This document shows positions 1 through 38,601 of a DNA stretch of 40,134 nucleotides, piece after piece. The translations under genes and the position numbers were made by a program. Below the pieces are notes generated by a model. The model was given only the letters and a program-made list of their open reading frames with translations. It was not told the DNA's origin and did no database searches. Source of the stretch: a virus; the UHGV virus genome UHGV-0384302, one strand, 5' to 3'. The number at the start of each line of letters is the position of its first letter. The stretch's first letter is position 1.

Positions 1-18
1 AAAACCGCATCCCTCCTC

Positions 19-552
19 ATGGAACGCATCATCAGGGACAACACGGACTGGCTCCCCGAACGTGCCGCCGCCTTCGCCCGGCAGGCCCATGAAGGACAGA
101 CCCGAAAATTCACGGGCGCCCCCTACTACACCCACGTGGAACGGGTGGCTGCTCTTGTCAGGGAGCGCACGGACAGGCTGGAACTCATCGCCGCTGCCTA
201 CCTCCACGACACGATGGAAGACTGCGGCGTCACCTATGAAACCCTCGCGCAGCACTTCGGCCATGCCGTCGCAAACATTGTCCACGCCCTCACCAATGAC
301 GATGCGCGGAAAAAGCAACAGGGAAAAGTACGCTACATGATCGACAAACTCACTGCCATGAACCCGGATGCCCTCCTGGTCAAACTCTGCGACATCCTCA
401 ACAACATTTCGGAAACCCAGTCCGCCAATCAGGCTCGCAACTACATCCTCATCATGGACGGCCTTCTCTCCAACCCTCCCCCTGTCTGGAACAAAACACA
501 CGCGGATATTGCCGCGCAAATCCTCACAGTCTACCAGAAAAACTGGTCATAG
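19..552 (+). CDS. Mesh1/SpoT-like HD-domain small alarmone hydrolase ((p)ppGpp/(pp)pApp hydrolase-like). The reading frame is open to base 1, so the 5' end could lie upstream of the window.
   Basis: Translation shows the RelA/SpoT HD-hydrolase signature: AAAFARQAHEGQTRKFTGAPYYTHVERVA...LIAAAYLHDTMEDCGVTYETLAQHFGHAVANIVHALTND...LLVKLCDILNNI. It aligns motif-for-motif with metazoan Mesh1 and bacterial SAH (H...HD...D metal ligands present). Size of 177 aa is typical of stand-alone SAH. Confidence 0.8.
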   Translation: MERIIRDNTDWLPERAAAFARQAHEGQTRKFTGAPYYTHVERVAALVRERTDRLELIAAAYLHDTMEDCGVTYETLAQHFGHAVANIVHALTNDDARKKQQGKVRYMIDKLTAMNPDALLVKLCDILNNISETQSANQARNYILIMDGLLSNPPPVWNKTHADIAAQILTVYQKNWS

Positions 553-612
553 GAAATTTTTCATTATATGCCGTCCAGAGATTGGAGGAGAAAATTATTA
601 GCGTAGTATAAA

Positions 613-1062
613 ATGGCAACAAAAAACGAGGATAAATTACCATCTGTATTTTTTGCTGATGCGAAGGATTCTTTTTTTGACAGTAAAAAAGTTATGCCTG
701 TTTTGAAAGATTCTTCGGAAGATCGAAGTAAACGGCAGAAAGAGAATATAGGAAAGGTATTATCAGGAGACCAAATTAAGCGGTATCATAGTACGGTCTC
801 TGAAAAAAAAGGAAACGTGTGTGGACCTGTCATTCAATACTGTTTAATATGGGCCGCTGTTGCAATAGCCGGAGGTTATGGAGTATTCCTCATTTCTAAA
901 GATGCTTGGTTCCATTTCCCTGTTGTTCTTTTATGGAGCCTATGGGTAGGCATAGGTGAGATTGTTTTTCTAACGGAGTTTGAAAAACAACACGGAAAAA
1001 TTGCCCTTTGGCTTTTTACAATTCAAATAACTGCTCTTCTATTGTGGGGGATATTAAGCTGA
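613..1062 (+). CDS. Small membrane protein (three predicted TM helices in the C-terminal half); AT-rich moron
   Basis: 149-aa ORF in a locally AT-rich island (about 560-1070) that contrasts with the high-GC flanks. Hydrophobic stretches: CGPVIQYCLIWAAVAIAGGYGVFLI, HFPVVLLWSLWVGIGEIVFL, IALWLFTIQITALLLWGIL. Confidence 0.5.
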   Translation: MATKNEDKLPSVFFADAKDSFFDSKKVMPVLKDSSEDRSKRQKENIGKVLSGDQIKRYHSTVSEKKGNVCGPVIQYCLIWAAVAIAGGYGVFLISKDAWFHFPVVLLWSLWVGIGEIVFLTEFEKQHGKIALWLFTIQITALLLWGILS

Positions 1063-1069: not shown

Positions 1070-1888
1070 TTAGATCCTACTCCAATTCGTTAGGGTTGTT
1101 ACATAGATGCCCGATATACGTCCTCCATCCATTGGTACAATGTCTTTGTACTCCGGATTGATCGGCTTGAGAACATATTCCAGCTTGCCGGTTTCCGGAT
1201 TTTTACGGCGTCCCAGTTTTTTGAGAGTGACGCCTCGTTCGTCATTGTACTCCACGATTGTTCCTACTTTGGGAATGGGGGGAACGGTATATTTCTTCAC
1301 CACGATAAGAGAACCGTCCATGATTTTAGGCTCCATGGATTTCCCGTTGACCCGCAACACGTATTCTCCTTTTCCGAGCGGCCTGTCTGTACGGATCATA
1401 AAAGGTATCGTATCTCCTTCCTCTAAGTTGCCGGCCGCAATATTGCCGATGACCTCCGCCTCTTGAGCAGGCACAGGATTTTTCAGATAGAAATAGCTCT
1501 GACCGCTTTCCTCTTTCTCTCTAAGGTCGATTTGGGGTCGGTCGGCACACCATTTTACGGTTAGAGAGCAGTACTCGGAAAGTTTCATTCCACGGCGGTA
1601 AGCTTCCTGTTCGGCTTTTTGAAGGGTAGTCATGTCCATTTCCACCGGAAGACGAAACTTTGTGTCCGTTTCAGCTTTATGAAGGTATTCGGGGCCGTAC
1701 TCCTTCTTTCCTGTAGTCTTGAAAATGAGAGTTTGAATAGTCAATTGAGCCTTAAAAGGAACCCCCCGATCTGACGACAACCATGTATCCACCGTTGCCT
1801 TACTGACACCACACTCCTTTGCAAGCCATGCCCGCTCAAGATTGTTCTCCCTCATCCAGTTTTTAATCTCATCTTTAGTTACCCTCAT
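1070..1888 (-). CDS. CI/LexA-like phage repressor: N-terminal HTH plus C-terminal S24 (LexA/UmuD-type) autopeptidase domain
   Basis: N-terminus KDEIKNWMRENNLERAWLAKECGVSKATVDTWLS (HTH). C-terminus GDTIPFMIRTDRPLGKGEYVLRVNGKSMEPKIMDGSLIVVKK...VTLKKL carries the S24 Ser (GKSMEP) and Lys (LKKL) dyad pattern. Begins the minus-strand regulatory cluster that faces a plus-strand early operon. Confidence 0.75.
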   Translation of the reverse strand: MRVTKDEIKNWMRENNLERAWLAKECGVSKATVDTWLSSDRGVPFKAQLTIQTLIFKTTGKKEYGPEYLHKAETDTKFRLPVEMDMTTLQKAEQEAYRRGMKLSEYCSLTVKWCADRPQIDLREKEESGQSYFYLKNPVPAQEAEVIGNIAAGNLEEGDTIPFMIRTDRPLGKGEYVLRVNGKSMEPKIMDGSLIVVKKYTVPPIPKVGTIVEYNDERGVTLKKLGRRKNPETGKLEYVLKPINPEYKDIVPMDGGRISGIYVTTLTNWSRI

Positions 1889-2044: not shown

Positions 2045-2371
2045 CTATCCTCGGTATGGCATGGCAGTATGCAGATGCAACGTAGCGTCAAGCCATTCTT
2101 CCGTCGTCAACCCCCGTCTTGCCGCCTCAATCTGGATAAGCCGGTAACGCTCGTTGGAGACCCTGATATGGACGTCTGTTTCCCTGTATACTTTGGCGTA
2201 GTGGCTATCAATAAGGTTGTCCAGCAGCCGTTGCTTGTCAGCGGGGATGGGAACCGTAGACAGCCACTTGTCTATCATGCCCTTTTTGACAGCACAGCGA
2301 TGCGCCAGTTCTTCCCGAGTCATGCGGGTGTCTTTCAGAAATACCCTGATTTTAGCCTTGAGGTCATCCAT
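2045..2371 (-). CDS. Small DNA-binding regulator (N-terminal HTH paralogous to the repressor, C-terminal RHH-like segment). The ORF track starts at 2392; the start is moved to the Met that aligns with the two paralogues.
   Basis: MDDLKAKIRVFLKDTRMTREELAHRCAVKKGMIDKWLS aligns with the N-terminal domains of the 1070..1888 and 2551..2931 genes. C-terminus IRVSNERYRLIQIEAARRGLTTEEWL is ribbon-helix-helix-like. Confidence 0.5.
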   Translation of the reverse strand: MDDLKAKIRVFLKDTRMTREELAHRCAVKKGMIDKWLSTVPIPADKQRLLDNLIDSHYAKVYRETDVHIRVSNERYRLIQIEAARRGLTTEEWLDATLHLHTAMPYRG

Positions 2372-2550
2372 ACGTGCATTTTTCGCATACACGAAATCTT
2401 GGCAAGGCTTTTCTTGGGTATTTTCGCAAACAGGAAATATTTATTGACTTTTGTTAGAGATGGAGGAAAAAATGTTTTCGCAATCCAATAAAAAACCAAG
2501 TTATGAAGATAACAACCCAACACCACCATATACCTGGCTATGAAAGAGCC

Positions 2551-2931
2551 TTAGTCCGCGTCCTGTGTTTTGCGCGGAGATCGAGAGCCCTGTTCCCCTG
2601 CCATGTGAGCCACCTGCACCGCCCATTTGGCAATACCGTCCGCCGTAGGTTCAAATCCGCTTTGCGCAGCCCAGGCAGCAAATTGACCGTAGGTTTCAGC
2701 ATCCAGTTTCAGAACAAGATCCAAAGCTCCCCGGCATTCACCAGTCACATCTGGAGAGGATGGTTCCATCAGCTTTTTGATTTTATCCAGCTTTATGTCA
2801 GGAATGGGACGATTGGCGGAAAGCCAGTTGTCTACCTGCCTTTTGCTTACAAAGCATTGTTTGGCAAGCCAAGCACGATCCTTCCCGGTTTCTCTTAACC
2901 ATTCCTTAATATCCTCTTTAGAAGGTTTCAT
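2551..2931 (-). CDS. HTH DNA-binding regulator, paralogue of the repressor N-terminal domain. The ORF track starts at 2967; the start is moved to the Met matching the repressor N-terminus.
   Basis: MKPSKEDIKEWLRETGKDRAWLAKQCFVSKRQVDNWLS versus repressor MRVTKDEIKNWMRENNLERAWLAKECGVSKATVDTWLS. The upstream extension MIEYSLCCIYQD of the track ORF has no counterpart in the paralogue. Confidence 0.55.
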   Translation of the reverse strand: MKPSKEDIKEWLRETGKDRAWLAKQCFVSKRQVDNWLSANRPIPDIKLDKIKKLMEPSSPDVTGECRGALDLVLKLDAETYGQFAAWAAQSGFEPTADGIAKWAVQVAHMAGEQGSRSPRKTQDAD

Positions 2932-3072
2932 GTCCTGATAAATACAGCATAGAGAGTATTCTATCAAGACTTAACTGTCCATATTCAGCTAAAAGTGCAT
3001 TTTGTGTTGACATAATACAGCGCAAAGAGTAATTCTGAAAACATCAGCGAGGAATACCACCCCATTACAGCC

Positions 3073-9073: not shown

Positions 9074-9565
9074 ATGAAAGAATTGACGGAGAAACAGAAG
9101 ACATTTGCCCGCGGCGTGTTTGAAGGATTGAGCCAGCGGGAAGCTTACAAGAAAGCCTACGATTGCAACACGAAAAAAGACAAGACCGTGGATGCTCTGG
9201 CAAGCCGCTTGCTAAGTAATGTTAAGGTGAAGGAGTACTTGGAAGAGCTGAACAAAGAGGTGGAAAGCCCGCTTATCCTGACCAAACAACAGCGGATGAT
9301 CTGGCTTTCCCGCGTGGTTACAACACCGCTTCATGAGGTAGATGACGATTCCGATTTGTGCCAAGAGCATTCTGTAACGACAGGAGAGAATAGCTCAACG
9401 GAGAGAATCAAGATGCCCTCCAAGCTGGGCGCCATTGCCGAGCTCAACAAGATGACCGGAGCCTATGCACCGGAGAAAGTGGAGACCAAAGTTGAGCATT
9501 CTTTCAGCTCGCTTCTCAAGGGGCTTCCTGCTGCTCCTTTGGTTCCACCCCCGGCGGAGTCATAG
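9074..9565 (+). CDS. terS: Terminase small subunit (Terminase_2/P27-like). The track start of 9017 is trimmed to the ATG after the upstream stop.
   Basis: MKELTEKQKTFARGVFEGLSQREAYKKAYDCNTK...ALASRLLSNVKVKEYLEEL...KMPSKLGAIAELNKMTGAYAPEK matches the conserved LT.KQ..F...Y / A...AGY / ASRLL / KL.aLe.L.K..G.y layout of small terminase subunits. Confidence 0.6.
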   Translation: MKELTEKQKTFARGVFEGLSQREAYKKAYDCNTKKDKTVDALASRLLSNVKVKEYLEELNKEVESPLILTKQQRMIWLSRVVTTPLHEVDDDSDLCQEHSVTTGENSSTERIKMPSKLGAIAELNKMTGAYAPEKVETKVEHSFSSLLKGLPAAPLVPPPAES

Positions 9566-10715
9566 CTTCCGCCAGCTTCTCAAGGGCTGCCCGTCGCTGC
9601 TCGTCATCTGGACGGATGTAGAGCTGGTGAACCGCTTCGGAGTCATGGCCCACTACTTCACGGGCAAGGGCCGCGTCCACGCCGGCGGCATGCAGTAGGG
9701 TTGCTGCCGTAGCCCGTAGGCAGTGGAACGTTTTTGGAGAGACAGAACGGGCGCGGGCTCCTTTGATGGATTCCAGCTTGGTGACAATACCTGCGTATTC
9801 CAGTTCCTTCCGGAATTGCTGGGAGACACCACCGGCTCCATTCCGGCTGTACTTATTTGCGATAACAGGGTGCACATATCCTTCTGTGGGACATAAAGAC
9901 GCGAGGTGCTGGCGGAGAGGCGCCACGATGGGGATTCGCATAGGGCGCCCCGTCTTGGCTGTTTTGAGGGCAATGATGCCCTGTTTCATATCAATCTGAT
10001 CCCAAGTCAGCATTGCCACGTCTCCAAGCCGCTGGCCGCCCATGTAGATACAGCAGATGACCATGCTGCGCCATTCAGGCGGGAGGGTCTGCACCATTCT
10101 ATGAACCTCTTCCACTGAAAAGGCTTCCTTGTCCACGTCTTCAATAGCGTTGGAGTCAGGAATACTTACCCGGAAACATGGGTTCTTGTCGATGATTTCA
10201 CTATCCAGGGCCGCCATGAAGGCTGGTGATAGTGTAGTCATGTATTTTCGCACGGTGCTACGTCTTACCGATTTCAGTTGTGCATTGATGAAGTCTTTGA
10301 TGTCCGACCTTTTGACCGCCGTAATAGGAAGATCAGCCCGGCGCCCCATATGTTCCAGAAAGAGCTTGATGGCAGTTTTGGAGTTGATGGTCGTCCCTCT
10401 TGTTACCTGTCCTTCCCTCGCTTCAATGTAGTTGTTCAGGTAGTCCCGGACGCTGGGTATTTCTGTTTGGTTTTCTCCGGCCAGACTGGCGATAGCAGCC
10501 TTGACTTTGGCAGCATGCGTTCCTTCCTTGTCTGCAGCTTCGTACCCGTCCGCAACAACCTGGGCGCGGTAGCGAGCTTGAGAAGGGGTTTCCTTTATTC
10601 CATTGATCACAGCCCCTCGAATTGGCACCTTCGTCGACACAAGCCTTTTCCTGTCGCCACTACGCCAGGAGGCGTACCAATACTTCGACGAGTCTCTTTT
10701 GAATAGGGATGCCAT
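9516..10715 (-). CDS. int: Tyrosine recombinase / phage integrase. The track ORF begins with TTG at 10739; ATG at 10715 is chosen.
   Basis: N-terminus MASLFKRDSSKYWYASW (typical Int N-terminus). C-terminal catalytic box HCLRATAATLLHAAGVDAALAREVVGHDSEAVHQLYIR (H-x-x-R ... H ... Y) and RLGDVAMLTWDQID (box I Arg). Its 3' end overlaps convergent terS by about 50 nt. Confidence 0.9.
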   Translation of the reverse strand: MASLFKRDSSKYWYASWRSGDRKRLVSTKVPIRGAVINGIKETPSQARYRAQVVADGYEAADKEGTHAAKVKAAIASLAGENQTEIPSVRDYLNNYIEAREGQVTRGTTINSKTAIKLFLEHMGRRADLPITAVKRSDIKDFINAQLKSVRRSTVRKYMTTLSPAFMAALDSEIIDKNPCFRVSIPDSNAIEDVDKEAFSVEEVHRMVQTLPPEWRSMVICCIYMGGQRLGDVAMLTWDQIDMKQGIIALKTAKTGRPMRIPIVAPLRQHLASLCPTEGYVHPVIANKYSRNGAGGVSQQFRKELEYAGIVTKLESIKGARARSVSPKTFHCLRATAATLLHAAGVDAALAREVVGHDSEAVHQLYIRPDDEQRRAALEKLAEAMTPPGVEPKEQQEAP

Positions 10716-10721
10716 GATGAA

Positions 10722-10964
10722 GTGCAAGACAAACTGCAAGACGTTTATATTGCTTATATATGATTATTGCAACACTAAATGTCTCAAAACATATTGGAAA
10801 TACAGGTATTTGGTGTTTCATAGGCATTAAGTACATAGTGCACGATGCACTAACATTTTCATATCACAAGTTACTGTTTATCAGTGATTGAAACTTTTTC
10901 TTTCTTGAAACTGCAAGACAGACTGCAAGACATGAAAACGGCTTTTAAAGGCATTGTCTTGCAG
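10722..10964. repeat. Five copies of a 9-bp motif (A/C/G)TGCAAGAC flanking an AT-rich core upstream of int; candidate Int arm-type / attP region
   Basis: gtgcaagac(10722), ctgcaagac(10734), ctgcaagac(10911), ctgcaagac(10923) as two tandem pairs with 3-nt spacers, plus the inverted copy gtcttgcag(10956). They bracket an AT-rich tract of about 170 bp immediately upstream of the int start. Confidence 0.5.
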
Positions 10965-11066: not shown

Positions 11067-11840
11067 TCAGGCAAGACCGACGAGACGGTTGTATTTGCGG
11101 TTGGCTTCCATGTGCCGGGGATGGGTCGGGTCATCCAGAGCGGCGTAGTCCGGGTGGTTGGGGTCCGTGAGCATAGCATGGGCTTCCTCCGCGTTGCTGC
11201 GGCCAGGAGCGGAGTTCTTGGCGCCCACAAAGGAATCTTCCCCGGTGGCGGTCATCAGAGCGTGCAGGAGCTTGAAGCCTTTGGGGGATTGCAGCGGGGC
11301 CATGTCTTCCGCCGAGAGGCCGGCCTTGGCTCGGAGCTTGGCCGTGAATTGTTTGACGGCTCCCATGTTGGCGTTGAAGCTGGTTCCCCACTCCTCCTTG
11401 AGTTCCTTTGTGGATTGAGCGATCGCTTCTGTCTCGGCCTTCTGCAGCGCGGCAATGACTCCGGAGACGTATTTTCCGGCGGCCTTCCCGTCAAGCCCTG
11501 CAGCCTTGGCTTGTTCGGTGGCCAGGGCCTTGAAGTCGTCGGATGCCTGAAAGTCTTCCGGGAGTTCCAGAACGTATTCTCCGGTATCATCCGGATTTTC
11601 CTGCTTGGCCGGATCCTGCGGATTGTCTCCGCCTCCGGGCTGGGTGTTGGGTTCCGGGTCTGCATCGAGGTTGAAGTTGGCGTCTTCTCCTTCTCCGGGG
11701 GCCGGGTTTTCGTCCCCAGCAGCCGGGGCCGGAGTATCTGCAGGTGTGGTGGCGGGGTTCTGCTCTCCGGGCGGGGTGACGTCTGCGGGGGCTTCTTCGC
11801 GCAGGAGGGGGCGGAATGGATTGAATAGGCTGGTGTGCAT
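11067..11840 (-). CDS. Acidic, Pro-rich then helical protein downstream of portal; scaffolding-protein candidate (T7 gp9 position). Start moved to the internal ATG (track starts at 11942).
   Basis: MHTSLFNPFRPLL..., then an acidic Pro/Glu/Asp-rich N-terminal half (PGEGEDANFNLDADPEPN...DDTGEYVLELPEDFQASDDF), then an Ala/Lys-rich helical region. Position right after portal matches T7 gene order 8-9. Confidence 0.4.
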   Translation of the reverse strand: MHTSLFNPFRPLLREEAPADVTPPGEQNPATTPADTPAPAAGDENPAPGEGEDANFNLDADPEPNTQPGGGDNPQDPAKQENPDDTGEYVLELPEDFQASDDFKALATEQAKAAGLDGKAAGKYVSGVIAALQKAETEAIAQSTKELKEEWGTSFNANMGAVKQFTAKLRAKAGLSAEDMAPLQSPKGFKLLHALMTATGEDSFVGAKNSAPGRSNAEEAHAMLTDPNHPDYAALDDPTHPRHMEANRKYNRLVGLA

Positions 11841-11845
11841 GGTGG

Positions 11846-12124
11846 TTATGGGTTGGTTTTCTGTTGTTGTTTTTCGTATTGGGATAGCTCGTGTTTGAGC
11901 CAGAGGATGACTTCCCGCTGGCCGTCGCGGATGGCGGCGCAAATGGGGTCCGGTTTCAGTGTCTGTCCAGTGAGCGGATCACGCGTCTGGAAGCAGGGGA
12001 GGTCTGTCCGGAATTCTTCTTCCAGGTACGCGATCACTTGTGGGGTGATGTGGGTGGCAAGGTGGGCCCTGCGCCGGTCCACATAATCCTTGTAGTCCTG
12101 TTCAAATTGCTGTTCTTCGTTCAT
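11846..12124 (-). CDS. Hypothetical small protein (start ATG overlaps the portal stop as ATGA)
   Basis: MNEEQQFEQDYKDYVDRRRAHLATHITPQVIAYLEEEFRTDLPCFQTRDPLTGQTLKPDPICAAIRDGQREVILWLKHELSQYEKQQQKTNP. Confidence 0.45.
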   Translation of the reverse strand: MNEEQQFEQDYKDYVDRRRAHLATHITPQVIAYLEEEFRTDLPCFQTRDPLTGQTLKPDPICAAIRDGQREVILWLKHELSQYEKQQQKTNP

Positions 12125-13770
12125 GATTGTGCTGCTTGTTGGGCGGCGGCCATGTCGCGTCCAGCCTTGGCGGCGCCCTGCATGGCTTCCAGTTGAGTCT
12201 GCTGCTGGGCTGCTGCAGCGCGTTGCTCGTCGAGTTGTTGGAGTTTATCTTCCGAGAGCAGGCAGTCCATGGGGGCTCCGGAGTTCTCATACAAGAACCG
12301 GGCATATTTCCGCATGTCCACGATTTCAAGCATGGAAGGGTCGTTTGTGGCCTGGGTGTAGGCAAGGGCCTGTTGGATGTAGTAGTCTCCCCCGTTGCGC
12401 TGGGCTCGCTCAATCGCCTGACTGATTTTGCCGTTGTAGGAGACGGAGGGGATTTTGATTTCAAAGTCTTCGCTGCCGCCCTGGTCCCGGACGACGAGTT
12501 CATCCGGCATATCCGCCGTGGGGAATTTCCCTTGCCGGAAGAGGACGGAGAAGGCGCGATTGATGAGGGTATTGCAGTCGAAAACGAAGAGGGTCATCGA
12601 CGGGGAGAAGGTGAGGACCTTTTCTCCTTCCCTGGCGTTGACTTCCGTCGCGGTCATTTGCCGGTCCACGGACGAGATGACCTGCAGCATGGGAACGTAG
12701 TAGGCTTGGCGGATTTTCTCTTCCTTGTCCTCGATGCGGTCCTTGCCTACGTCGTAGTGTCCGGTGGTTCCCCATTCGCGGGGCAGGTTCAGCCCCGCAG
12801 CCTGCGGCTTGATGACGGTGCGGCCCCCTGCACGGAAGTCAACCTCTCCTACCTGCTCAGCCAGCATCATGATGCGGGGGAAGGCGGCGACTTCCCCGAG
12901 GACGTCCATGACCCGTTCCAGCTTGAGGGTGGCTTTAATCTCTTCCTTGACGTTCATGCCGGGGGCGTAGCCGTAGGGCGATTCCCCAAAGCGCAGGAAA
13001 CGTGTGACAAGGAACGGGAATTCATTGTAGCCGCCTTCCTGAATGACGGTCTTGTCAGATTCCCATGCCAGATATACGGAGGCCCATTTCATCTTCAACG
13101 GGTTGACAAGGTCGTGCCCGAAGTCCGCTCCCGGACGAGGGATGACGAGGTGCAGGTATTGGTGCTTTTCCGTGTAGCGGCGCTTGGGGTCTTCCCAGGC
13201 GTCTTTGATTTTCTGCGGGAGTTTGTCAGCCCCGAATTGTTCAACGGCTTGGTGCGGCGTGAGTTTGAAGAGGCGGGCGAGGGTGTCTACTACCTTGTTT
13301 CTTCCCTCCGCGATCGCGTAGGTGCCCGTAGGAATGTGGGTGAAGTTGAGGCTGCCATCCGGCAAAGTATCGCAGAAGACGCAACCGGTTCCTGTCAGGC
13401 AGCGGTCCAGGAAGCACTGGTGGATGACGGTGTAGAAGTTGGAATTGGCCAGGGCCTTGTGGGTGATTTCCGTGGCCTTGGCAAACCATTCGTCGTACCG
13501 GGACCGCTTGTCGTTTCCTTCCCTGCCGGATTTGAGGGAGAACCATTGCTGCCCCGTGGGCGTGATGTACATGAGGTGTGCCCCGGCCAGCACATGCAGG
13601 GATTCACAGGCAACGGTGGAGTGCAGCCGGCGGTTGTCCGCCGCCGGGTTTTCTTCCTGGTCGGCGTCCGCCTGGGTGTGAGGCATGATGTGGCGGCGCA
13701 GCCAGTCCCATTCGCCGGAGCGGCTGCGCATTTCTTCCAGGAGGGCATCTGCTGTGCGTATGTAGTCCAT
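12121..13770 (-). CDS. Portal (head-to-tail connector) protein, T7 gp8-like. The track start 13833 would overlap the upstream gene by 62 nt, so the start is placed at the MDYIR ATG (13806 is an alternative).
   Basis: FLRFGESPYGYAPGMNVKEEIKATLKLERVMDVLGEV parallels T7 gp8 VRLDGESYGRSYIEEYLGDLRSLENLQEAIVKMSM. Q/A-rich C-terminal tail (EQRAAAAQQQTQLEAMQGAAKAG...) as in gp8. Length about 550 aa. Confidence 0.75.
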   Translation of the reverse strand: MDYIRTADALLEEMRSRSGEWDWLRRHIMPHTQADADQEENPAADNRRLHSTVACESLHVLAGAHLMYITPTGQQWFSLKSGREGNDKRSRYDEWFAKATEITHKALANSNFYTVIHQCFLDRCLTGTGCVFCDTLPDGSLNFTHIPTGTYAIAEGRNKVVDTLARLFKLTPHQAVEQFGADKLPQKIKDAWEDPKRRYTEKHQYLHLVIPRPGADFGHDLVNPLKMKWASVYLAWESDKTVIQEGGYNEFPFLVTRFLRFGESPYGYAPGMNVKEEIKATLKLERVMDVLGEVAAFPRIMMLAEQVGEVDFRAGGRTVIKPQAAGLNLPREWGTTGHYDVGKDRIEDKEEKIRQAYYVPMLQVISSVDRQMTATEVNAREGEKVLTFSPSMTLFVFDCNTLINRAFSVLFRQGKFPTADMPDELVVRDQGGSEDFEIKIPSVSYNGKISQAIERAQRNGGDYYIQQALAYTQATNDPSMLEIVDMRKYARFLYENSGAPMDCLLSEDKLQQLDEQRAAAAQQQTQLEAMQGAAKAGRDMAAAQQAAQS

Positions 13771-13771
13771 A

Positions 13772-14059
13772 TTAGCCGAGGGTTGTACGTTTGAACGGAG
13801 AGCCATAAACGGGGTTTCCAAGGGTGGCTGCATTCACGGTTTTGTTGAGAGAGAGCCGGCGGCGCCCCGCTCCGTTGACCGTGTCTGCTGCCTTACTGAT
13901 GTCCTTGGTTTCCGTGGTGATGGTTTTCTGTTCAGGCTGGTTTTCCATAGCGTCCGCCATGGCATTGGCTGCACTGGCCTGTTTCTTGGCTGCCTTGTTG
14001 GCGCCGTACCCGCCGAACGTAGCGATATTTGCCAAAGTACTCCCGATTGATGATCCCAT
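13772..14059 (-). CDS. Hypothetical small protein between endolysin and portal
   Basis: 95-aa Ala/Lys/Thr-rich ORF tightly packed between the amidase stop (14066) and the portal start. Coding-like composition. Confidence 0.4.
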   Translation of the reverse strand: MGSSIGSTLANIATFGGYGANKAAKKQASAANAMADAMENQPEQKTITTETKDISKAADTVNGAGRRRLSLNKTVNAATLGNPVYGSPFKRTTLG

Positions 14060-14065
14060 AGTAAT

Positions 14066-14656
14066 TTACTGGTTGAGGGTGTAGGCGTCCACGCCCTGCG
14101 CGATGGCGCGGGCAATGGCGCCGGGGGTGTCGTGCATCACGGAAGCGTCTCCGGGGTTGGTCAGAAAGCCGCACTCCACCAGCACTGCCGGCGGCACGGT
14201 CTTGCGGAGCACATACAGGCTGGTCTTGTTTGGCTTACAGGACCGGTCAGGACGTGCCTGTACATGGTCAGCGCGGCCCGGCATGAGCTTGCACAGCGGC
14301 CCGGCAATAGCTTCGGCCAGACGTTTGCCAGAAGGGGAATCCGTATAGGAACCGTCGTCGTGGTAGTTGCGGTGGTGGCAGACATGGGCCCCGCAGGCCG
14401 TATCGGAATCGGAAGAGTCGCAATGCAGGGAGATGGAAATATCATAGCCTCCGGTATTGATGGCCTTGACCGTGGCGGCAAGATCGTCGTCGTTGTCCAT
14501 GCGAGGGAAGTCGATGACGGTGACGGCGTGTCCCCGGGCCCGCAGCATGTAGGCCAGATGGTAAGCGATAGTCTTAGCCGTGGAGTGTTCTTCCAATCCA
14601 TCCAAGCCGCGGGCTCCGGTGTTGTTGGCGTGTCCGATGTCTAAAGCGATATTCAT
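14066..14656 (-). CDS. N-acetylmuramoyl-L-alanine amidase (Amidase_3 family) endolysin
   Basis: MNIALDIGHANNTGARG..., ISLHCDSS, VLVECGFLTNPGD are the conserved Amidase_3 zinc-ligand/active-site blocks. Confidence 0.85.
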   Translation of the reverse strand: MNIALDIGHANNTGARGLDGLEEHSTAKTIAYHLAYMLRARGHAVTVIDFPRMDNDDDLAATVKAINTGGYDISISLHCDSSDSDTACGAHVCHHRNYHDDGSYTDSPSGKRLAEAIAGPLCKLMPGRADHVQARPDRSCKPNKTSLYVLRKTVPPAVLVECGFLTNPGDASVMHDTPGAIARAIAQGVDAYTLNQ

Positions 14657-14712
14657 AGTTATAACTTGTTTTGATTAGAACCGGTTAGAACTGGTAAGAA
14701 AAACTTTACAGT

Positions 14713-14955
14713 TCAATCGACAATCTCCCATTCTTCAGAAAAAAGTTCGATGAACGTTTCCTTCCACGGCACCCGCCCGAAACGGGATTCCACGTATAGA
14801 TAGGGTGCTGTCATCTTGCTATGCTCGTCCGGGAACTGGGCGCGGATGACTACATCCGGGGACCACTTCGGCAATCTGGCTCCCTTGCCATTTTTCAAAG
14901 CGTGGAGAGCATCCGAAAAAGAGCGTCCTGAATTGTTACATAAATTGTTAGGCAT
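14713..14955 (-). CDS. DUF2829-family small protein (Tad2-like, Thoeris anti-defence sponge family)
   Basis: FSDALHALKNGKGARLPKWSPDVVI...MTAPYLYVESRFGRVPWKETFIELFSEEWEIVD reproduces the DUF2829 consensus (ALEALK.GKKV.RKGW...PFI.M.TADG..VPW..SQ.DLLAEDWEIV). Length of 80 aa is typical. Confidence 0.6.
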   Translation of the reverse strand: MPNNLCNNSGRSFSDALHALKNGKGARLPKWSPDVVIRAQFPDEHSKMTAPYLYVESRFGRVPWKETFIELFSEEWEIVD

Positions 14956-14956
14956 A

Positions 14957-15166
14957 TTATTTATTGGTCTGATGTTCGAGGTTGGAAAGGCGGAGGTCCA
15001 TCGTGCGGAGTATTTCGGCTGTCTTGGCCGATGTTTCTGCTTGTTCCTGGACCACCGTCCTGAAGTCCATGTAGATGCAGACGGCGGCCCCAGCTCCGCC
15101 GAACATCATGATGATGTCCTTGTACTTGCGGATGGTTTCCAGCCGCTTGTCTACAAAATCACACAT
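14957..15166 (-). CDS. Small single-TM protein, holin candidate (start moved to the internal ATG)
   Basis: MCDFVDKRLETIRKYKDIIMMFGGAGAAVCIYMDFRTVVQEQ... has one hydrophobic helix. Lies 2 genes upstream of the endolysin. Confidence 0.3.
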   Translation of the reverse strand: MCDFVDKRLETIRKYKDIIMMFGGAGAAVCIYMDFRTVVQEQAETSAKTAEILRTMDLRLSNLEHQTNK

Positions 15167-15170
15167 GGTC

Positions 15171-15488
15171 TTATTTCTTGGTAGCTTGAACGACGGGCGG
15201 CGTATCCGTGGCGGGCTGGGCCTGGCTGTAGGACAGGTGGCCCGGCTCAATGACGAGGCAGGAGCCATCCTTGCAGACCTCCGTGCGGCCTGGGGTCACG
15301 TCTACGGAGTGCCCACAGCCTCCCAGTAAAGCGGACGCCGCATAGGCCGCCCCCGCCAGGACCACCCACAAAAGGCGTTCCCACCATTTCAGGCCGGGTT
15401 TAGTTTTGCTTTTTTCGTAGGCATTCTTCATGCCCTGCTTCCCCGCCTCCAGGGCGGCCTTCTTTTGTTCGTCACTTAACTTACTCAT
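15171..15488 (-). CDS. Membrane protein with lipobox-like LLGGC after a TM segment and a Cys-containing Pro-rich C-terminus; spanin/holin-like (start moved to the internal ATG)
   Basis: MSKLSDEQKKAALEAGKQGMKNAYEKSKTKPGLKWWERLLWVVLAGAAYAASALLGGCGHSVDVTPGRTEVCKDGSCLVIEPG...PPVVQATKK. Its start overlaps the upstream stop. Confidence 0.35.
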   Translation of the reverse strand: MSKLSDEQKKAALEAGKQGMKNAYEKSKTKPGLKWWERLLWVVLAGAAYAASALLGGCGHSVDVTPGRTEVCKDGSCLVIEPGHLSYSQAQPATDTPPVVQATKK

Positions 15489-15888
15489 GGTTTTGCTTTG
15501 TGAAGTATTGGAAAAATGCCACGGCGGCGGGGTCCGTGATGACGAATTCCGGGTAGTCCACCCGCGTGAACGTCCGGCGTCCGCCCTGGGTATTGACGGC
15601 CTCGACGGACAGCGCCACGGCATCGGTGGCAGTCGGCGGCCTGTCGACGTCATCTCCGTGAGTTGTCACCTGCACCAGCCTCGCCCATACCTGGGAGGCT
15701 TGCCAGTCCTCGCCCATGCTGGCAATCGCGGCCACCGCTGCCGCCAGGGCCGGGGCTTGGTCGGCTGGGATGCCGTCCTGCGTGTAGCGGTAGGAACACA
15801 CAAAGCCGTTGCTGTCTGGAAATCTGGCGGTCATGACAAATTCGTCCCACTGTCCTGGGTTGGGAAACTGTAAATATATCTCTTGCAT
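15481..15888 (-). CDS. Hypothetical protein downstream of the tail fibre (possible fibre assembly/tail accessory protein)
   Basis: 135-aa ORF packed between tail fibre and membrane-protein genes. No TM segment. No recognisable motif. Confidence 0.45.
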   Translation of the reverse strand: MQEIYLQFPNPGQWDEFVMTARFPDSNGFVCSYRYTQDGIPADQAPALAAAVAAIASMGEDWQASQVWARLVQVTTHGDDVDRPPTATDAVALSVEAVNTQGGRRTFTRVDYPEFVITDPAAVAFFQYFTKQNHE

Positions 15889-15892
15889 GGTG

Positions 15893-18313
15893 TTATTGCG
15901 CTAATTGGTTGATTTCCACGACAGCGGTCTGGGCATAGTGGTGGCCGACAAAAACCCACACTTGCCGGGGTTGCCCGGTCGTGTTGGGGGCAAGCGTCAG
16001 GGTGATTTGGCCGCCGCCGGCTGGTATCTGCTCCGCGGATTGGCTGCACCATACGGCGGCGGGGTCATGCCCGCACATCGTGTCGTTAATGGCGTACACA
16101 GCCTCCGCCAGTGTGGAGGATACCGTCAGCGTTACTTCACCGCCTTCCGCTCCCACCTCCAGCGCGGAAGCCGTCACCTCCGGCACGGGCTTGACCGTCG
16201 CATCACGCATCACAACGCGCTCCATGATCGGCCAGACATCGTTGACTCCCAGCGCGGGGGCTGCGTCAATCCTCATGCCTCCCATCCGCAGCCCCACTTG
16301 CATGGTACTGCTCACCTCGTGAGCCTTGGCTTTTGCCGTGAAGCAGGCCGTGTTGCCGCTCCCGCAAAACAGGCTTGTCATCGGCATCACGTAGTGGCCG
16401 TCCACAAACATCTCCCAGCGATTCTCAACATTGGCGTGGTCAGCCGATTGCCGGGGAGTTATCGCCACAGAAAGATAAGTAACGCTGGGCGCCAATGCCC
16501 ACATATACTGCTGATCACCTACATCCCGCCCGTAATCCGTGCCGCGCAACAGGCAGGACGTGCTGCTGCCCAGGTAGCCCTTGGGGTAGATCGTCACCTG
16601 CCAGGCGGGCGTCATGTCTCTGCTGGTTGCGCCGTTGACAGAGTTGATCAGCGGGTATCTGTAATTTGCATTATCCCAGGCATAATCTACCCAATGGATG
16701 GGATGCGCATAACAATCCGCCGCCGGATTGGTCGCCGAGGAATAGCCTTGCGCCGTACTCCCCAGCAGGATAGACACCTTGTCAGAGCCGATGATGCGCC
16801 ACACAGAGGCGGCGGCATAATCTCTATTACGGCTATTGCCCATGTAGTTGGCAAACTTCCACGCCCCAGTGCTGCAACCAATCAGAGATATGCCGGCAGC
16901 CTTGGTCATCGTGACCAGCATGTCCTGCCAATCGTTACCGTATACGCCCTCCTTGATGGATACGTTGGCCGTGCCCACATTATAAGCGGCGGACATCTGC
17001 ATCTGCCTCACAATGGTAGTTACCCAGGAGGGGATCAGGGTCTCCATGTAGTACCCCATCCGCCGCCAATCATCTGCGGCCCGCTGCTCTATCAGCGCCT
17101 CGTAAGAGATAGCCTCCTGCGCCGTGGCGGGCAAAGGGACGCGCACGCCACCGTTGGCAGTAACGGTGCCCGTCGCAGTCAGACCGCCGGCCAGCGTCAT
17201 GTTGCCCGCCGCGTCCACCTGCGGGATGGCGGCAAGGGCTTGCTGGGCCGCGGTGGCGGCGTTGCTGGCTGTCTGTGCAGATTGGCTGGCATCAATGGCG
17301 GTCGTATTTACCCTTCCTTCCGTTTTGTCTATTTCCTCTTTGGCGGTTTCCGCCTGTTCGACAAGGGGCGTGATTGCCTCCATGGCTTCCGCCTGGACCG
17401 TCTGCACTGCCTGCACGGCTTCCGTCTTTGCCGTTTCCACGGCTGTGACAGCAGCGCCTTGTGCGCTGGCTACCTTGTCCGTGGCGGTTTTCTGCGCTCG
17501 CCCTACAGCAAGAACGGAATCAGCTTGCTTGGCTTGTATGACGGTAACGGCTTCCTCTTTGGCCGCGCTGATCGTCTGTTCCCCGTTGCTGACCGTCTGC
17601 GTAAAATCTGAAACAATCCCTTCCACAGCCGTCTTAGCGTCATTGGCGCTCCTGGCGTCACGGGCCGCATCAGCGGCGGACGTATTGGCCGCCGTCTCGG
17701 AATTAGAAGCTGCCACCTTGGAAACGTAAGCAGAATCGGCATAGCCTTCCGCTTCTCTGGCACGTTCCACGGCGGTAGTGGCTGCTCCGGTTGCCGTCGT
17801 GGCTGCCTGACTCGCTGTGTCCGCGTCCGTGCGGGTTTGTTTGGCTGCATTCAAGGCGTGTTCTGCAGAGATGGAGGCGAGGGTGCAGGAGTTCCATTCC
17901 AGACGGATTTGACGGGTGACGTCGCCTGGCAGGCGAATGGACAGAGTCCGGGACGCATAGGTTTTGGTGTTGTCGGCAAGCTTCCCAATAGATTTGATGA
18001 CACCGATGTAACCGCTAATAAGGCGGTTCTGGTTTCCGGATTCCGAGACGGCAAAGATTTCATAGGGGTGGCGGCCTTCGGGGAGCCCGATGCAGGAAAC
18101 GATGAGGACGTTGGCTTCTTCCGCTGCTGCGGATTTCTGGATGTCGAGTTCGACGGGTTCCGCCCTGCCTTCAAGATGGACGCGCCCGGTGAAAGTGACT
18201 CCGTCCAGAGATACGGGTTCCAAGGTGGATTCATCGCTAAACATCCAGCGCTGCGTCCATGGAATGTTTTCAATGGCTGACCAGTTTTCTGTGACACCGA
18301 GAAAGTCAAGCAT
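15893..18313 (-). CDS. Tail fibre protein
   Basis: 806 aa. N-terminal globular domain, central Ala/Thr/Gln-rich low-complexity fibrous segment (...AATTATGAATTAVERAREAEGYADSAYVSKVAASNSETAANTSAADAARDARSANDAKTAVEG...) typical of phage fibres, and a large C-terminal globular (receptor-binding-like) domain. Confidence 0.7.
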   Translation of the reverse strand: MLDFLGVTENWSAIENIPWTQRWMFSDESTLEPVSLDGVTFTGRVHLEGRAEPVELDIQKSAAAEEANVLIVSCIGLPEGRHPYEIFAVSESGNQNRLISGYIGVIKSIGKLADNTKTYASRTLSIRLPGDVTRQIRLEWNSCTLASISAEHALNAAKQTRTDADTASQAATTATGAATTAVERAREAEGYADSAYVSKVAASNSETAANTSAADAARDARSANDAKTAVEGIVSDFTQTVSNGEQTISAAKEEAVTVIQAKQADSVLAVGRAQKTATDKVASAQGAAVTAVETAKTEAVQAVQTVQAEAMEAITPLVEQAETAKEEIDKTEGRVNTTAIDASQSAQTASNAATAAQQALAAIPQVDAAGNMTLAGGLTATGTVTANGGVRVPLPATAQEAISYEALIEQRAADDWRRMGYYMETLIPSWVTTIVRQMQMSAAYNVGTANVSIKEGVYGNDWQDMLVTMTKAAGISLIGCSTGAWKFANYMGNSRNRDYAAASVWRIIGSDKVSILLGSTAQGYSSATNPAADCYAHPIHWVDYAWDNANYRYPLINSVNGATSRDMTPAWQVTIYPKGYLGSSTSCLLRGTDYGRDVGDQQYMWALAPSVTYLSVAITPRQSADHANVENRWEMFVDGHYVMPMTSLFCGSGNTACFTAKAKAHEVSSTMQVGLRMGGMRIDAAPALGVNDVWPIMERVVMRDATVKPVPEVTASALEVGAEGGEVTLTVSSTLAEAVYAINDTMCGHDPAAVWCSQSAEQIPAGGGQITLTLAPNTTGQPRQVWVFVGHHYAQTAVVEINQLAQ

Positions 18314-18344
18314 GTGGTCTTGATAACACGCATCTGTTCCAGGT

Positions 18345-27170: not shown

Positions 27171-29708
27171 ATGCCTGAACAACCCATGTACAGCGGCGCC
27201 CGCACCCAGCTTGGAGACGGCGCTTCCCCCTTTGTCATCCCCAATATTGGAATTGACGCTTCACAGCACGCTATCCAGCGCGGCACCGTGACTCTGGATG
27301 AAACTGTGAAGCAGTATTTCAAGATTCAGGACTTTGGAGAGGAGCAACGCCTTGAGTCCGAGGTAAGGGGATTGCAGAGTAAGTTCGACGTGGAGTTCCA
27401 GCGGCGGGCATCCCTGGCTCCCGGCTCTTCCTCGCAGGCTTTATATGATTCCGACGGCACCTTGCGTGAAAGCGTGCTGCAGGACTTGTCCGATGAGTAC
27501 GCGGGAAAGATTGGAGAGCTGCGGGGCGGCTTTGTGCTGCCGGAGAGCCGCATGAAGTCCGATGCCATGCGCCAGCGAGTAGGTGATAGTTTTCTGAACA
27601 GCGCATACCAGAAAGCCGCCCTGCTGGGGATTCAGCGCACGCGGGAACACTTCCAGAACAACTATGACCTCGCCATTCGTAACGGAGACTACTCCGGGGC
27701 CGGGTACGCCATCACGGACGCACGTGACAACGGCGTCATCACCGCAGAAAAAGCGGACATCATGCTCCTTGACCTTCGGGACACTGCTCTCATGGCCCGC
27801 GCCCAAAAGCAAAGCGAAGAAGACCCCGTCGCCTTCTGGAATGAACTGGACGACGACGGCAGCCCTTACGCCGTTCTCCCCTCCTCTAAGCGCATGCAGC
27901 TCCAACGCCTCGCTTCTCTCTCCATGCAGGGATTCAGCCGTTCCTTCGTCAAATCCGTGGAAACAGGCAACGCCAAGGCGGAAAAAATCCCCGGATCCAA
28001 AACCTCAACAGCATCCACAGGCAGCGCGAAAAAAGAAAAGGAAATCTACAACCCGGCTCCCTCCAACATCACCCGCAATCTTCATGCCCTCTGGCGCAAA
28101 TACAACGGAGACTTCAAGGAAGGGCAAGGAAAAATAGACGCCATGCCCTTCCTTGCGGAACAGGGTCGAGCCATGATCACCTCGCCCAATGACGAAACGG
28201 AGGCGGAAATGGTCATCGCCCTCTACAAGCAATTCGGGCAGGGGGAAGACTACGCTAAAGCCATGGTCAAGCAATGGCAGGAAGACCTCGCCCGACCGAA
28301 GGGTCTTGACCCTAAAGTCACCTTATCCCATGCAGCCCAGGTGGGCTACTTCACCAGGGCGGAAGACGCGGCCATCCTTGCTCTTGAACAGGAAAAAGCG
28401 CAGAAACAGGAAGACGATGAATGGACGCCGGAAGATGAAGCCCGGCTCAAGGCCGCCAAAGACCGGAGAAAAGCCGCTGCGGAAAATGCCCAATCCATCC
28501 TCCTCGCCAATCTGGACATCTGGAAAAACGACCAGCAATACAACGGCGGAAAAGAAAAAAAGGAACTCACGGAACTCGAAATTGCCAACCGCCTGTGGGA
28601 CACCATCGCCAACTACACCCCAGGCAACAGGGATCAGGTTCAGCAAGACAGCTACCGACAACAGGAAGCAGTCAACATCACAGCGGCCAGTGACAATTAC
28701 GTTCGGAAGCAGGCCGCAGCCCAAAGCCGCAACCTTGACCTGAAAGCGGAACTGTCCGTTACCAACCGCCTCAATGAAGAAGAACGGAAAGCCGCAGAAA
28801 AAATGATCGCGGACATCAGGCGCAGGGAAGAAGAAGCCTACCGCCGCACGCAGCCCGTGGACTCCATCGTGCCCGTCAGCCGGAACAAAGACCTCCCCGC
28901 CCAATGGGGGGACGACGGACAGGAAGCCGTTCTCTACGTTCCGGAAGGCTGGTACGCGGAAGGAATCACCGTGGGCGTCACCACCCCCGGCCGCCGCTAC
29001 GCGGAAGCGAAAATCGTCTCCAAACCGGACTGCACCTCTCCCACCATGTCTAAAGCCCTTCGCCGCCAGCTTGGCACCATGAACATCAACTACGACCAAA
29101 TTACCGTCACCGCATCCGGCACCAAAGCCAACACTGCCGCCGGAAACACCGCTGCCCTCATCATCGGCAATGAAGCCCGCCGTGACAAACAGGGCAATCT
29201 TTCCATCTACAGACTCCCAGCCGGAGACGGCGGAGGAACGCATGAAATCGCCGGAATCAACAACGGCAGCCACCCGGCGGAATACGCCAAACTGGAAACC
29301 CTCGTCAAAGCGGGCAAACACGCGGAGGCGGAACAGGAAGCCAAACGGTACATCATGCAATATACCCAGCCCGTCGGAAACATCCTTCAAACCGCAGGCG
29401 TCACTTCCTCCGGCATAGACTACTTCCTCCGGGACATGTACTTCAACGGCGGCGAATATGGGGCCGTCCGCGTCATTCATCGCGCCCTCGGAGTGGAAGA
29501 CTCCAAAAAATTCAATGCGGACACCGTGGAAGCCGTAAAAAACTACCTCAAGACCCACACGGAACAGCAGCTCTTGGAACGCCTCAAAAACGCACGGGAA
29601 CGCCTCTACAAATCCATCGCCGCCAACAACCCGGACAAACGGCAATTCCTCTCCGGCTGGCTCAACCGGAACAACCGCGTCTACGGGCAGGCCGCGGAGA
29701 TGGCTTAA
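27171..29708 (+). CDS. Internal virion (ejection) protein with C-terminal GH108-like N-acetylmuramidase plus PG_binding_3 domain (T7 gp15/gp16 class)
   Basis: 845 aa, long charged helical regions. The C-terminal ~170 aa (...DGGGTHEIAGIN...YFLRDMYFNGGEYGAVRVIHRALGVEDSKKFNADTVEAV...RQFLSGWLNRNNRV) match the GH108/DUF847 core (DPGG.T..GI ... NGG...A.R.LQ.A.GV.DG..G..T) and the F..GW.NR ending of the PG-binding domain. Confidence 0.6.
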   Translation: MPEQPMYSGARTQLGDGASPFVIPNIGIDASQHAIQRGTVTLDETVKQYFKIQDFGEEQRLESEVRGLQSKFDVEFQRRASLAPGSSSQALYDSDGTLRESVLQDLSDEYAGKIGELRGGFVLPESRMKSDAMRQRVGDSFLNSAYQKAALLGIQRTREHFQNNYDLAIRNGDYSGAGYAITDARDNGVITAEKADIMLLDLRDTALMARAQKQSEEDPVAFWNELDDDGSPYAVLPSSKRMQLQRLASLSMQGFSRSFVKSVETGNAKAEKIPGSKTSTASTGSAKKEKEIYNPAPSNITRNLHALWRKYNGDFKEGQGKIDAMPFLAEQGRAMITSPNDETEAEMVIALYKQFGQGEDYAKAMVKQWQEDLARPKGLDPKVTLSHAAQVGYFTRAEDAAILALEQEKAQKQEDDEWTPEDEARLKAAKDRRKAAAENAQSILLANLDIWKNDQQYNGGKEKKELTELEIANRLWDTIANYTPGNRDQVQQDSYRQQEAVNITAASDNYVRKQAAAQSRNLDLKAELSVTNRLNEEERKAAEKMIADIRRREEEAYRRTQPVDSIVPVSRNKDLPAQWGDDGQEAVLYVPEGWYAEGITVGVTTPGRRYAEAKIVSKPDCTSPTMSKALRRQLGTMNINYDQITVTASGTKANTAAGNTAALIIGNEARRDKQGNLSIYRLPAGDGGGTHEIAGINNGSHPAEYAKLETLVKAGKHAEAEQEAKRYIMQYTQPVGNILQTAGVTSSGIDYFLRDMYFNGGEYGAVRVIHRALGVEDSKKFNADTVEAVKNYLKTHTEQQLLERLKNARERLYKSIAANNPDKRQFLSGWLNRNNRVYGQAAEMA

Positions 29709-38432: not shown

Positions 38433-38578
38433 AAAGTATCGCCGCGGCTCCGGAGAACCGCGACGACCTTTGGACACTTGCCTGAAACGAGGCAAGGCGT
38501 TCAGCATATCACCTCCTTTCACGTTCTCGGAAGAACTTCCTTGTGTCATACAAAAAAGAAACAGAAGAAAAACCTTGC

Positions 38579-38601
38579 TTTAGTATCGTGACGATACTAA
38601 A
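38579..38601. promoter_or_regulatory. Perfect 23-bp palindrome (11+1+11) in the gap before the right-end genes; candidate operator for a dimeric regulator
   Basis: TTTAGTATCGT-g-ACGATACTAAA, AT-rich, in a non-coding gap of about 250 bp (38433-38682). No adjacent U-run on the plus strand. Confidence 0.4.

Follow-up and report, generated by a model that had tools for sequence, protein, structure and literature searches.

A predicted alarmone hydrolase with a helix-turn-helix-like N-terminus in a temperate Akkermansia podophage that also encodes a Tas1-like synthetase domain

Why does a temperate phage of Akkermansia carry an enzyme of the kind that degrades alarmones, and does this enzyme work with or against another protein of the same phage? 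The question is raised by the virus genome UHGV-0384302, of which we analysed one stretch of 40,134 nucleotides (here called the window). An open reading frame (ORF) at 19..552 on the plus strand, with 177 codons from an ATG to a TAG stop (550-552), had been described from the letters alone as a textbook, stand-alone small alarmone hydrolase (SAH), possibly the partner of a segment resembling RelA/SpoT homologues (RSH) in a giant protein of the phage. We find that the enzyme assignment holds, that the gene is longer than this ORF and is cut in two by the ends of the window, and that the giant protein has a predicted, apparently intact synthetase domain related to the toxin Tas1. Whether the two enzymes are tied to each other is less certain, and our proposal that the hydrolase serves as off-switch or immunity for the phage's own synthetase is a tentative one.

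The protein is an SAH-type HD hydrolase of the RSH superfamily, an assignment that is secure as far as sequence and predicted fold allow. The 177-aa ORF product matches Pfam HD_4 with an E-value of 7.5e-16 (58.7 bits against a cut-off of 27.2) and Pfam HD above the gathering score (1.9e-5). It also matches phrog_990, annotated as 'metal-dependent phosphohydrolase' (5e-36), and TIGR00691 spoT_relA in its N-terminal hydrolase part (9e-22). A search with hidden Markov models (HMMs) had been proposed in the sequence-only reading. A profile built from 29 relatives and compared with the PDB retrieved Thermus Rel (5e-35), human MESH1 (1.4e-32), Drosophila Mesh1, PaSAH and RelH. In a pairwise alignment the residues R29, H39, H63-D64, E67-D68, D125 and N129 (numbered on the 177-aa product) fall on MESH1 R24, H35, H61-D62, E65-D66, D122 and N126, and all catalytic and metal-binding columns are invariant in the alignment of the 29 family sequences. 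The AlphaFold2 (AF2) model (mean confidence, pLDDT, 86.9) shows the all-helical SAH fold; its top Foldseek matches are MESH1 and PaSAH 6yvc (TM 0.72 on the target, rmsd 3.3-3.5), with further matches to RelH and the Thermus Rel hydrolase. The protein has neither a synthetase nor a TGS or ACT domain. The description as a textbook SAH with intact HD motifs was thus correct.

With the solved members of the Mesh1/PaSAH group (human and Drosophila MESH1, the Pseudomonas aeruginosa SAH and Corynebacterium glutamicum RelH), to which it is 24-30% identical in the Foldseek alignments, the window hydrolase shares the HD_4 fold, the metal-binding and catalytic residues, the arginine of the base site (MESH1 R24, TtRel R43) and a catalytic part of ~175 aa. 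Unlike them, it is encoded by a temperate phage and has an extra module of ~54 aa that resembles a helix-turn-helix (HTH). On these residues the enzyme very probably removes the 3'-pyrophosphate from alarmone-type nucleotides as an Mn2+-dependent HD hydrolase of the Mesh1/SpoT type. Its predicted substrate range is probably broad and includes both (p)ppGpp and (p)ppApp, since the guanine-side arginine of the Mesh1/PaSAH type is present and the signature of the phage hydrolase Aph1 is absent. The adenosine specificity of Aph1 has been linked to D24, D116 and R119, together with R96, K133 and Y134 (PMC10083569). At the positions of D24, D116 and R119 the window hydrolase has Arg, Ser and Gln, in a mapping that goes through TtRel (R43 for Aph1 D24, N150 for Aph1 N114) and assumes no insertion or deletion between N114 and R119. 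The 29-relative profile also matches Aph1 more weakly than MESH1 (2.5e-15 versus 1e-32). Membership of the Aph1 family was rejected because these three signature residues are missing. The active site would nevertheless be compatible with (p)ppApp hydrolysis, because Mesh1 and PaSAH hydrolyse both nucleotides (for Mesh1-type enzymes see PMC7644958 and PMC10083569), yet it bears no signature of a dedicated (p)ppApp enzyme.

The gene itself extends beyond the ORF. A search with the hydrolase protein returned 19 loci from viral contigs, and in eight related contigs (L002-L009) window base 40134 is directly joined to base 1. Since the last base runs into the first in these relatives, the window is a circular or circularly permuted phage genome whose cut point lies inside the hydrolase gene, and the adjacency to the right-end genes that had been proposed for a circular genome is real. 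Read in the frame of ATG 19, the sequence is open from the very first base, and it continues an ORF that begins at ATG 39991 and runs past the last base of the window. The start codon at 39991 shares bases (ATGA) with the TGA that ends the upstream gene of a DUF3560-family protein, an arrangement that suggests translational coupling. Across the junction, 39991..40134 and 1..552 form a stop-free ORF of 231 aa; the ORF list of the linear window misses its 5' 48 codons. The ORF at 19..552 is therefore real but comprises only the C-terminal 177 of 231 codons. The upstream frame, which the sequence-only reading had wished to see followed past the window start, continues to ATG 39991, and the term 'stand-alone' is not borne out, as the ~54-aa HTH-like N-terminus is fused in frame and conserved.

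The shared frame could still be incidental, with an HTH ORF of ~48 codons followed by a separate 177-codon hydrolase gene from ATG 19, in which case the hydrolase would be stand-alone as first described. The methionine at this position (Met55 of the fusion) is indeed kept in the window, in L002-L009, in the clade of L011 and in most of the proteins P0009-P0013, and there are natural versions without the N-terminal part that have a stop just upstream (L010, L021, P0003, P0004). Against this, the two parts are not separated by a stop in any of 15 loci, which belong to two clades with differences at about 50% of the residues: the uninterrupted 231-aa frame is kept in the eight close relatives and also in the ~50%-identical clade L011-15, L023 and L030. 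Gene callers run on other assemblies predicted proteins of 229-233 aa as well, including six clusters at 46-48% identity, and the N-terminal sequences of the proteins of this length P0009-P0014 are quite different. Within the first 54 codons of the close relatives, variable columns are distributed 2/2/10 over codon positions 1, 2 and 3, and the two clades have the linker peptide PSKT.SLLLME in common at the amino acid level. P0014 has Ile in place of Met55, and ATG 19 is not preceded by a purine-rich ribosome-binding sequence. Two separate genes thus seem very unlikely. On these sequence patterns we take the 231-aa fusion as the real product, and an internal start at Met55 may give an additional one.

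The N-terminal ~54 aa are a putative HTH and are best called HTH-like. The module (..AVEKAVGVLGVTRLTIFRWLNG..) follows the classic helix-turn-helix pattern; Pfam matches to it are weak and below threshold (HTH_3, E=0.027 and 0.075; YdaS, 0.083), and AF2 places three helices there with low to moderate confidence (pLDDT 51-78). The same layout is found at the N-termini of a CI-like repressor (1070..1888) and of the proteins at 2045..2392 and 2551..2967, at an identity of 14-20%. Altogether four phage proteins begin with a module of the type ..W.... A...GVS..T...WL.G..P: those of 1070-1888, 2045-2392 and 2551-2967 on the minus strand and that of 39991-40134 on the plus strand. As a speculation, the HTH-like head could tether or autoregulate the enzyme, comparable to the DNA-binding domains of antitoxins.

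The proposed partner of the hydrolase was sought in the giant 2900-aa protein. As a whole this protein has no match in Pfam, PHROG or NCBIfam, and the segment of interest itself has none in Pfam. A phmmer search against the PDB gave Tas1 (6ox6) as the only match, with 6.8e-7 for the whole protein and 3.1e-8 for the segment alone, and aligned residues 1469-1605 to Tas1 245-376. A word-indexed protein search with the segment found nothing, unlike the later exhaustive search of 1.84 billion representative proteins, which found 1344 homologues, many of them inside proteins of 1,000-4,800 aa; tblastn of the segment against GenBank phages gave no match. The profile of the resulting family recognises Tas1 (2e-27), RelP/YwaC (1.9e-7), an exported small alarmone synthetase (SAS) and the synthetase domain of RelSeq (6.5e-5) in the PDB, and 13 of 27 family members match Pfam RelA_SpoT (PF04607). 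All nine invariant and all six nearly invariant columns of the family are kept in the window. The kept residues, numbered in the segment 34080-34769, are K59, R63, K67, D81, K113, G123-Y124-D126, G136, E140, K152, H157 and Y160, and the kept columns include the Asp of D..G, which binds Mg2+ in RSH synthetases, and the Glu of GE.Q/I. The AF2 model of the segment (pLDDT 90.6) has Tas1 as top Foldseek match, followed by SAS enzymes and CapRel. These sequence and model comparisons indicate that the giant protein carries a predicted Tas1-like RSH synthetase (pyrophosphokinase) domain that is apparently intact. The RSH-like segment seen in the sequence-only reading is thereby supported and can be specified as Tas1-like. 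A DUF2829 protein, which had been counted there as a further part of the phage's nucleotide signalling, was not present among the 40 window ORFs scanned against Pfam, a set that did not include all small ORFs.

Tas1 is a (p)ppApp synthetase toxin that P. aeruginosa delivers by type VI secretion. The window segment has its best fold match in Tas1 and shares the motifs LKGR.RA..K, D..G, GY.D and GE.Q/I with it at about 23% identity (Foldseek), but is part of a giant phage protein instead of a type VI effector. Tas1 has the immunity protein Tis1, and no Tis1-like protein was recognised in the phage. For the giant protein as a whole we infer, by analogy, a role as internal virion or ejection ('polyvalent') protein, because its gene follows that of a protein with a peptidoglycan-binding domain (27171..29708, 845 aa, PG_binding_3 match), because it has hydrophobic C-terminal segments and because the concept of polyvalent proteins includes RelA/SpoT domains (PMC5512222). 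Polyvalent proteins with RelA/SpoT (Iyer et al. 2017, PMC5512222) are likewise giant and multidomain, encoded near structural genes and predicted to be injected. The cases given there come from Spirochaetes, epsilon-proteobacterial prophages and MuF fusions, while here it is an Akkermansia podophage; a pairing with a hydrolase gene does not seem to be described in that paper. Of the Pfam domains regarded as hallmarks of polyvalent proteins, the window giant protein showed none. Three relatives (L005, L006 and L009; locus ~3908-4930) have an insertion of ~336 aa just after the Tas1-like domain (window 35041/35085). The insertion has an H...GxYF...E-like pattern and a very weak match to ART-PolyVal (E=0.25), and suggests modular domain swapping in the giant protein.

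What, then, could be the role of a hydrolase in such a phage? Our tentative answer, held at somewhat less than an even chance, is that it switches off, or gives immunity to, the Tas1-like synthetase that the phage itself would inject. The giant protein would presumably be ejected into the cell together with the DNA. There its synthetase domain would make (p)ppApp-type nucleotides from ATP and bring the metabolism of the host or its defences to a halt. This alarmone pulse would later be ended by the hydrolase, which would also guard the cell while the giant protein is being produced and could shield lysogens when sibling phages inject the same toxin. There are precedents in the literature. In temperate phages the genes of MuF-Apk2 toxins, which are (p)ppApp synthetases, precede iapK and aph1, and the hydrolase encoded by aph1 confers immunity, against Tas1 too (PMC10083569, PMC12226406). 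A type IV antitoxin, ATfaRel, is itself an SAH (PMC7229694), and RelA/SpoT domains of phage polyvalent proteins are predicted to act after injection (PMC5512222). The Apk2-IapK-Aph1 systems of temperate phages of Bacteroides caccae and Streptococcus pneumoniae are a close parallel, as they also combine an RSH synthetase in a virion protein with an HD hydrolase gene downstream on the same strand (PMC10083569, PMC12226406). Apk2 forms the C-terminus of a MuF protein, whereas the Tas1-like synthetase of the window is found midway in a protein of 2900 aa. An operon of toxic SAS (toxSAS) and antitoxin of the ATfaRel type was rejected since no small SAS gene is adjacent; the sole RSH synthetase domain in the window is the one internal to the giant protein.

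The observations in favour of a link are that two rare enzymes of opposing activity are encoded on the same strand of one 40-kb genome, with the synthetase domain 5.4 kb upstream of the hydrolase, and that both occur in 9/9 related contigs that hold both regions. Furthermore, the phage group has two genome arrangements, that of the window and that of L002-L004 and L010. Neither of them parts the hydrolase from the giant-gene block, while the genes downstream of the hydrolase differ in the latter. Several results weigh against such a link. The nine contigs are close relatives (83-97% identity) and amount to roughly one observation. The hydrolase is not adjacent to the synthetase, as two genes and a structured spacer lie in the 5.4 kb between them, unlike in Apk2-IapK-Aph1, and its active site lacks the Aph1 residues mentioned above. 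The HTH-hydrolase fusion recurs (~50% identity) in a second lineage of Akkermansia phages, where a search at E<=1 found no RSH synthetase domain, an ORF of ~5,700 aa included. This search covered bases 1-53044 of IMGVR_UViG_3300029549_000236 (53.7 kb, to within 673 of the end) in five overlapping loci and six frames, with the family HMM, which also detects ordinary Rel/SpoT synthetase domains. Some contigs of this lineage have the hydrolase, and a syntenic one lacks it. Conversely, three other Tas1-like giant phage proteins (L111, L113, L114/115) had no HD_4 gene in the flanks examined, where L111 is a weak case as its contig ends ~1.2 kb after the giant gene. The link between hydrolase and synthetase is therefore not obligatory. 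The proposed partner domain does exist, and a functional pairing is only plausible, given a second lineage in which no such domain was found.

Some further features of the second lineage were noted. The ~5,700-aa reading frame is a single ORF from contig ~18349 to ~1199 (L204 6847-21021, L210 2-14176). In L219-L221 (around 1-3000) the region beyond the capsid gene differs between contigs, one having Hachiman (HamA and a helicase) and another Lamassu (LmuB_C) and a CTD7 protein; this region, which lies a few kb from the hydrolase, has the look of a defence hot spot carried by the phage.

The wider family of the hydrolase bears on where the gene came from. Its nearest non-phage relatives are chromosomal SAHs of Akkermansia (174 aa, 58% identity; L216-L218, at 8001-8525 or 4610-5134), in a neighbourhood that is conserved in three assemblies and includes an ABC-F ATPase, a lacto-N-biosidase-like gene (Lnb_N) and a Bat cluster (BatA-D). 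This similarity makes the host genus the probable source from which the phage took the gene. A copy without HTH that is 86% identical occurs in a metagenome-assembled genome (MAG) of Akkermansiaceae (L021, 2950-3489), between a Type ISP restriction-modification gene (88-2769) and a MatE transporter, and its nucleotide homology to the phage begins exactly at the HD part (window base 14). SAH homologues were found in 312/50,697 GenBank phage records, all below 60% identity.

Two other roles can be considered. Independently of the phage's own synthetase, the hydrolase could serve counter-defence, neutralising toxSAS of the host (CapRel, FaRel) or toxins of rival phages by hydrolysing the products of toxins that make alarmones or pyrophosphorylate tRNA. 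The SAHs PaSpo and PbcSpo of the Salmonella phages SSU5 and PVP-SE1 are likewise phage-borne RSH hydrolases and neutralised all toxSAS tested, which establishes this activity experimentally for the class (PMC7229694; used as a tool in PMC9712102). They are single-domain proteins from phages with no reported synthetase, in contrast to the HTH-fused hydrolase of the window with a synthetase in the same genome. Counter-defence gains from the second lineage, which has the HTH-hydrolase without a synthetase and where presence and absence vary as is usual for accessory anti-defence genes, and also from the HTH-less copy beside a restriction-modification gene. The GenBank phages point in the same direction, as SAH homologues occur among them and a search of this collection with the Tas1-like segment gave no match. 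Counter-defence leaves unexplained, however, why two such rare and opposing enzymes share one small genome. Moreover, PADLOC gave no match for the hydrolase, although its library consists of defence and not of anti-defence proteins. We regard counter-defence as unlikely, though a serious candidate.

It is also conceivable that the enzyme resets the alarmones of the host, lowering (p)ppGpp so that the cell stays metabolically active or is biased between lysis and lysogeny, with the HTH-like domain linking it to the adjacent lysogeny switch. This would fit the active-site arginine, which is that of (p)ppGpp hydrolases (TtRel R43, MESH1 R24), and the chromosomal relatives, whose housekeeping-like neighbourhood suggests that a host alarmone enzyme was captured. 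As arranged in the window, the gene neighbours that of the CI-like repressor, and the N-terminus of its product is laid out like those of three proteins of the lysogeny region. Other phage SAHs have been given a hypothetical role of this kind before (PMC12846349). But the hydrolase is away from the lysogeny module in four relatives (L002-4, L010) and the HTH assignment is weak, and host reset appears improbable to us, though it stays in contention. We return to the hydrolase as off-switch or immunity for the injected synthetase, which can be extended to an alarmone attack-and-immunity system with orphan immunity genes, an arms race over one small molecule in a single gut species. The synthetase in the ejected giant protein would then intoxicate every cell that the virion enters, the HTH-hydrolase expressed from a cassette beside the lysogeny switch would make lysogens and productive infections immune, and the copies in the second lineage and the HTH-less copy by the restriction system on a host chromosome would be orphan immunity genes against the injected toxin. 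In this extended form the proposal is quite improbable.

The positions of the hydrolase, the giant protein and their surroundings are collected in Table 1.

Table 1. Features of the window discussed in the text (positions in nucleotides of the 40,134-nucleotide window)
Feature	Position	Strand	Remarks
Hydrolase gene, 5' part	39991..40134	+	Residues 1-48, HTH-like N-terminal module
Hydrolase gene, 3' part	1..552	+	Codons 49-54, linker (bases 1-18), then 177-codon HD part (19..552)
HD_4 / RSH hydrolase catalytic domain	64..438	+	Residues 16-140 (177-aa numbering), 70-194 (231-aa numbering)
Giant 2900-aa protein	29730..38432	+	Follows 845-aa protein with peptidoglycan-binding domain
Tas1-like RSH synthetase (pyrophosphokinase) domain, predicted	34038..34763	+	Residues ~1437-1678; HMM envelope
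Structured spacer, 250 nt	38433..38682	+	Between giant gene and four-gene cassette
orf113, first gene of cassette	38683..39024	+	ORF call
DUF3560-family protein	38894..39994	+	366 aa from first ATG; Pfam DUF3560 1.9e-6 (shorter form)
AT-rich gene, 149-aa protein with about three hydrophobic segments	613..1062	+	Immediately downstream of hydrolase
CI/LexA-like repressor, N-terminal HTH and Peptidase_S24	1070..1888	-	Peptidase_S24 6e-11; convergent with hydrolase cassette
Tyrosine integrase	9516..10739	-	Phage_integrase 4.8e-15
Probable attachment region	10740-11066		Low-GC gap; GC 0.434 at 10501-11000

The hydrolase gene is phage DNA, and the genome is that of a temperate Akkermansia podophage. 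The window encodes a T7-type portal (PF12236, 1.4e-91), and also DnaB, an integrase, a small terminase, a capsid protein, an amidase, a terminase-large-like protein and a tail protein. With the integrase end and the probable attachment region about 10 kb away, the hydrolase is interior to the integrated prophage. The contig of one prophage-derived relative ends at window ~11067. An origin of the gene from host DNA outside the prophage was considered and rejected, as phage genes flank it on both sides, the junction is contiguous in eight relatives and the integrase is ~10 kb off. The claim that the gene is phage-borne is therefore sustained, and no phage boundary was found between 552 and 1070, the place that the sequence-only reading had named for one that would refute it.

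The repressor gene, which is 71% identical at the nucleotide level to that of Akkermansia phage Chambord, marks the lysogeny switch. Between it and the hydrolase lies the gene of a protein with hydrophobic segments, which is AT-rich as had been noticed before (GC 0.38 vs 0.58). Of the relatives, L005-L009 have this gene, whereas L002-L004 and L010 lack it. Its product has no family match in Pfam, PHROG and PADLOC/PDB scans; the composition of the gene suggests a recent, moron-like acquisition. In L002-L004 and L010 (locus ~10545-19462) the block 18314..11067, with the portal, the amidase and an 806-aa gene, is inverted and follows directly after the hydrolase, replacing the membrane gene and the lysogeny and replication modules at that position.

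Upstream of the hydrolase, the DUF3560 gene probably has its real start near 39053. Its product matches phrog_6744 (1e-48) and phrog_19458 ('primase', 7.5e-41), and apart from DUF3560 nothing informative turned up for it in Pfam, PADLOC or the PDB. For orf113 we found no match in Pfam, PADLOC or the PDB; it is a candidate for a protein-type immunity factor. The spacer that precedes this cassette contains a 13-bp stem (38438-38467), a 9-bp stem (about 38581-38601) and other hairpins, and its RNA folds at -77 kcal/mol, compared with -60.6 +/- 4.6 for shuffled sequences (z = -3.5). No Rfam family was found anywhere in the window, spacer included. The spacer may be a terminator or a regulatory region that sets the four-gene cassette apart from the late genes. 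Around the hydrolase gene, scans for promoters and terminators gave background levels.

Phage SAHs and phage pairs of synthetase and hydrolase are both of known kinds, and there is no new kind of system here. If the pairing is not functional, the window holds one more accessory phage SAH of a class that is already known. The HTH fusion would exemplify the joining of an alarmone hydrolase and a putative DNA-binding module. The gut bacterium Akkermansia muciniphila is of medical interest, and the biology of its phages is almost unexplored. If the pairing is functional, the theme of virion-borne synthetase and hydrolase, known from MuF head proteins in siphophage-type prophages, would extend to a podovirus and its ejection protein, and the hydrolase partner could be of the broad Mesh1 type and not of the Aph1 type. 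The phage would then also offer a tractable case for the question raised in PMC10083569, whether virion synthetases are injected for infection or for competition.

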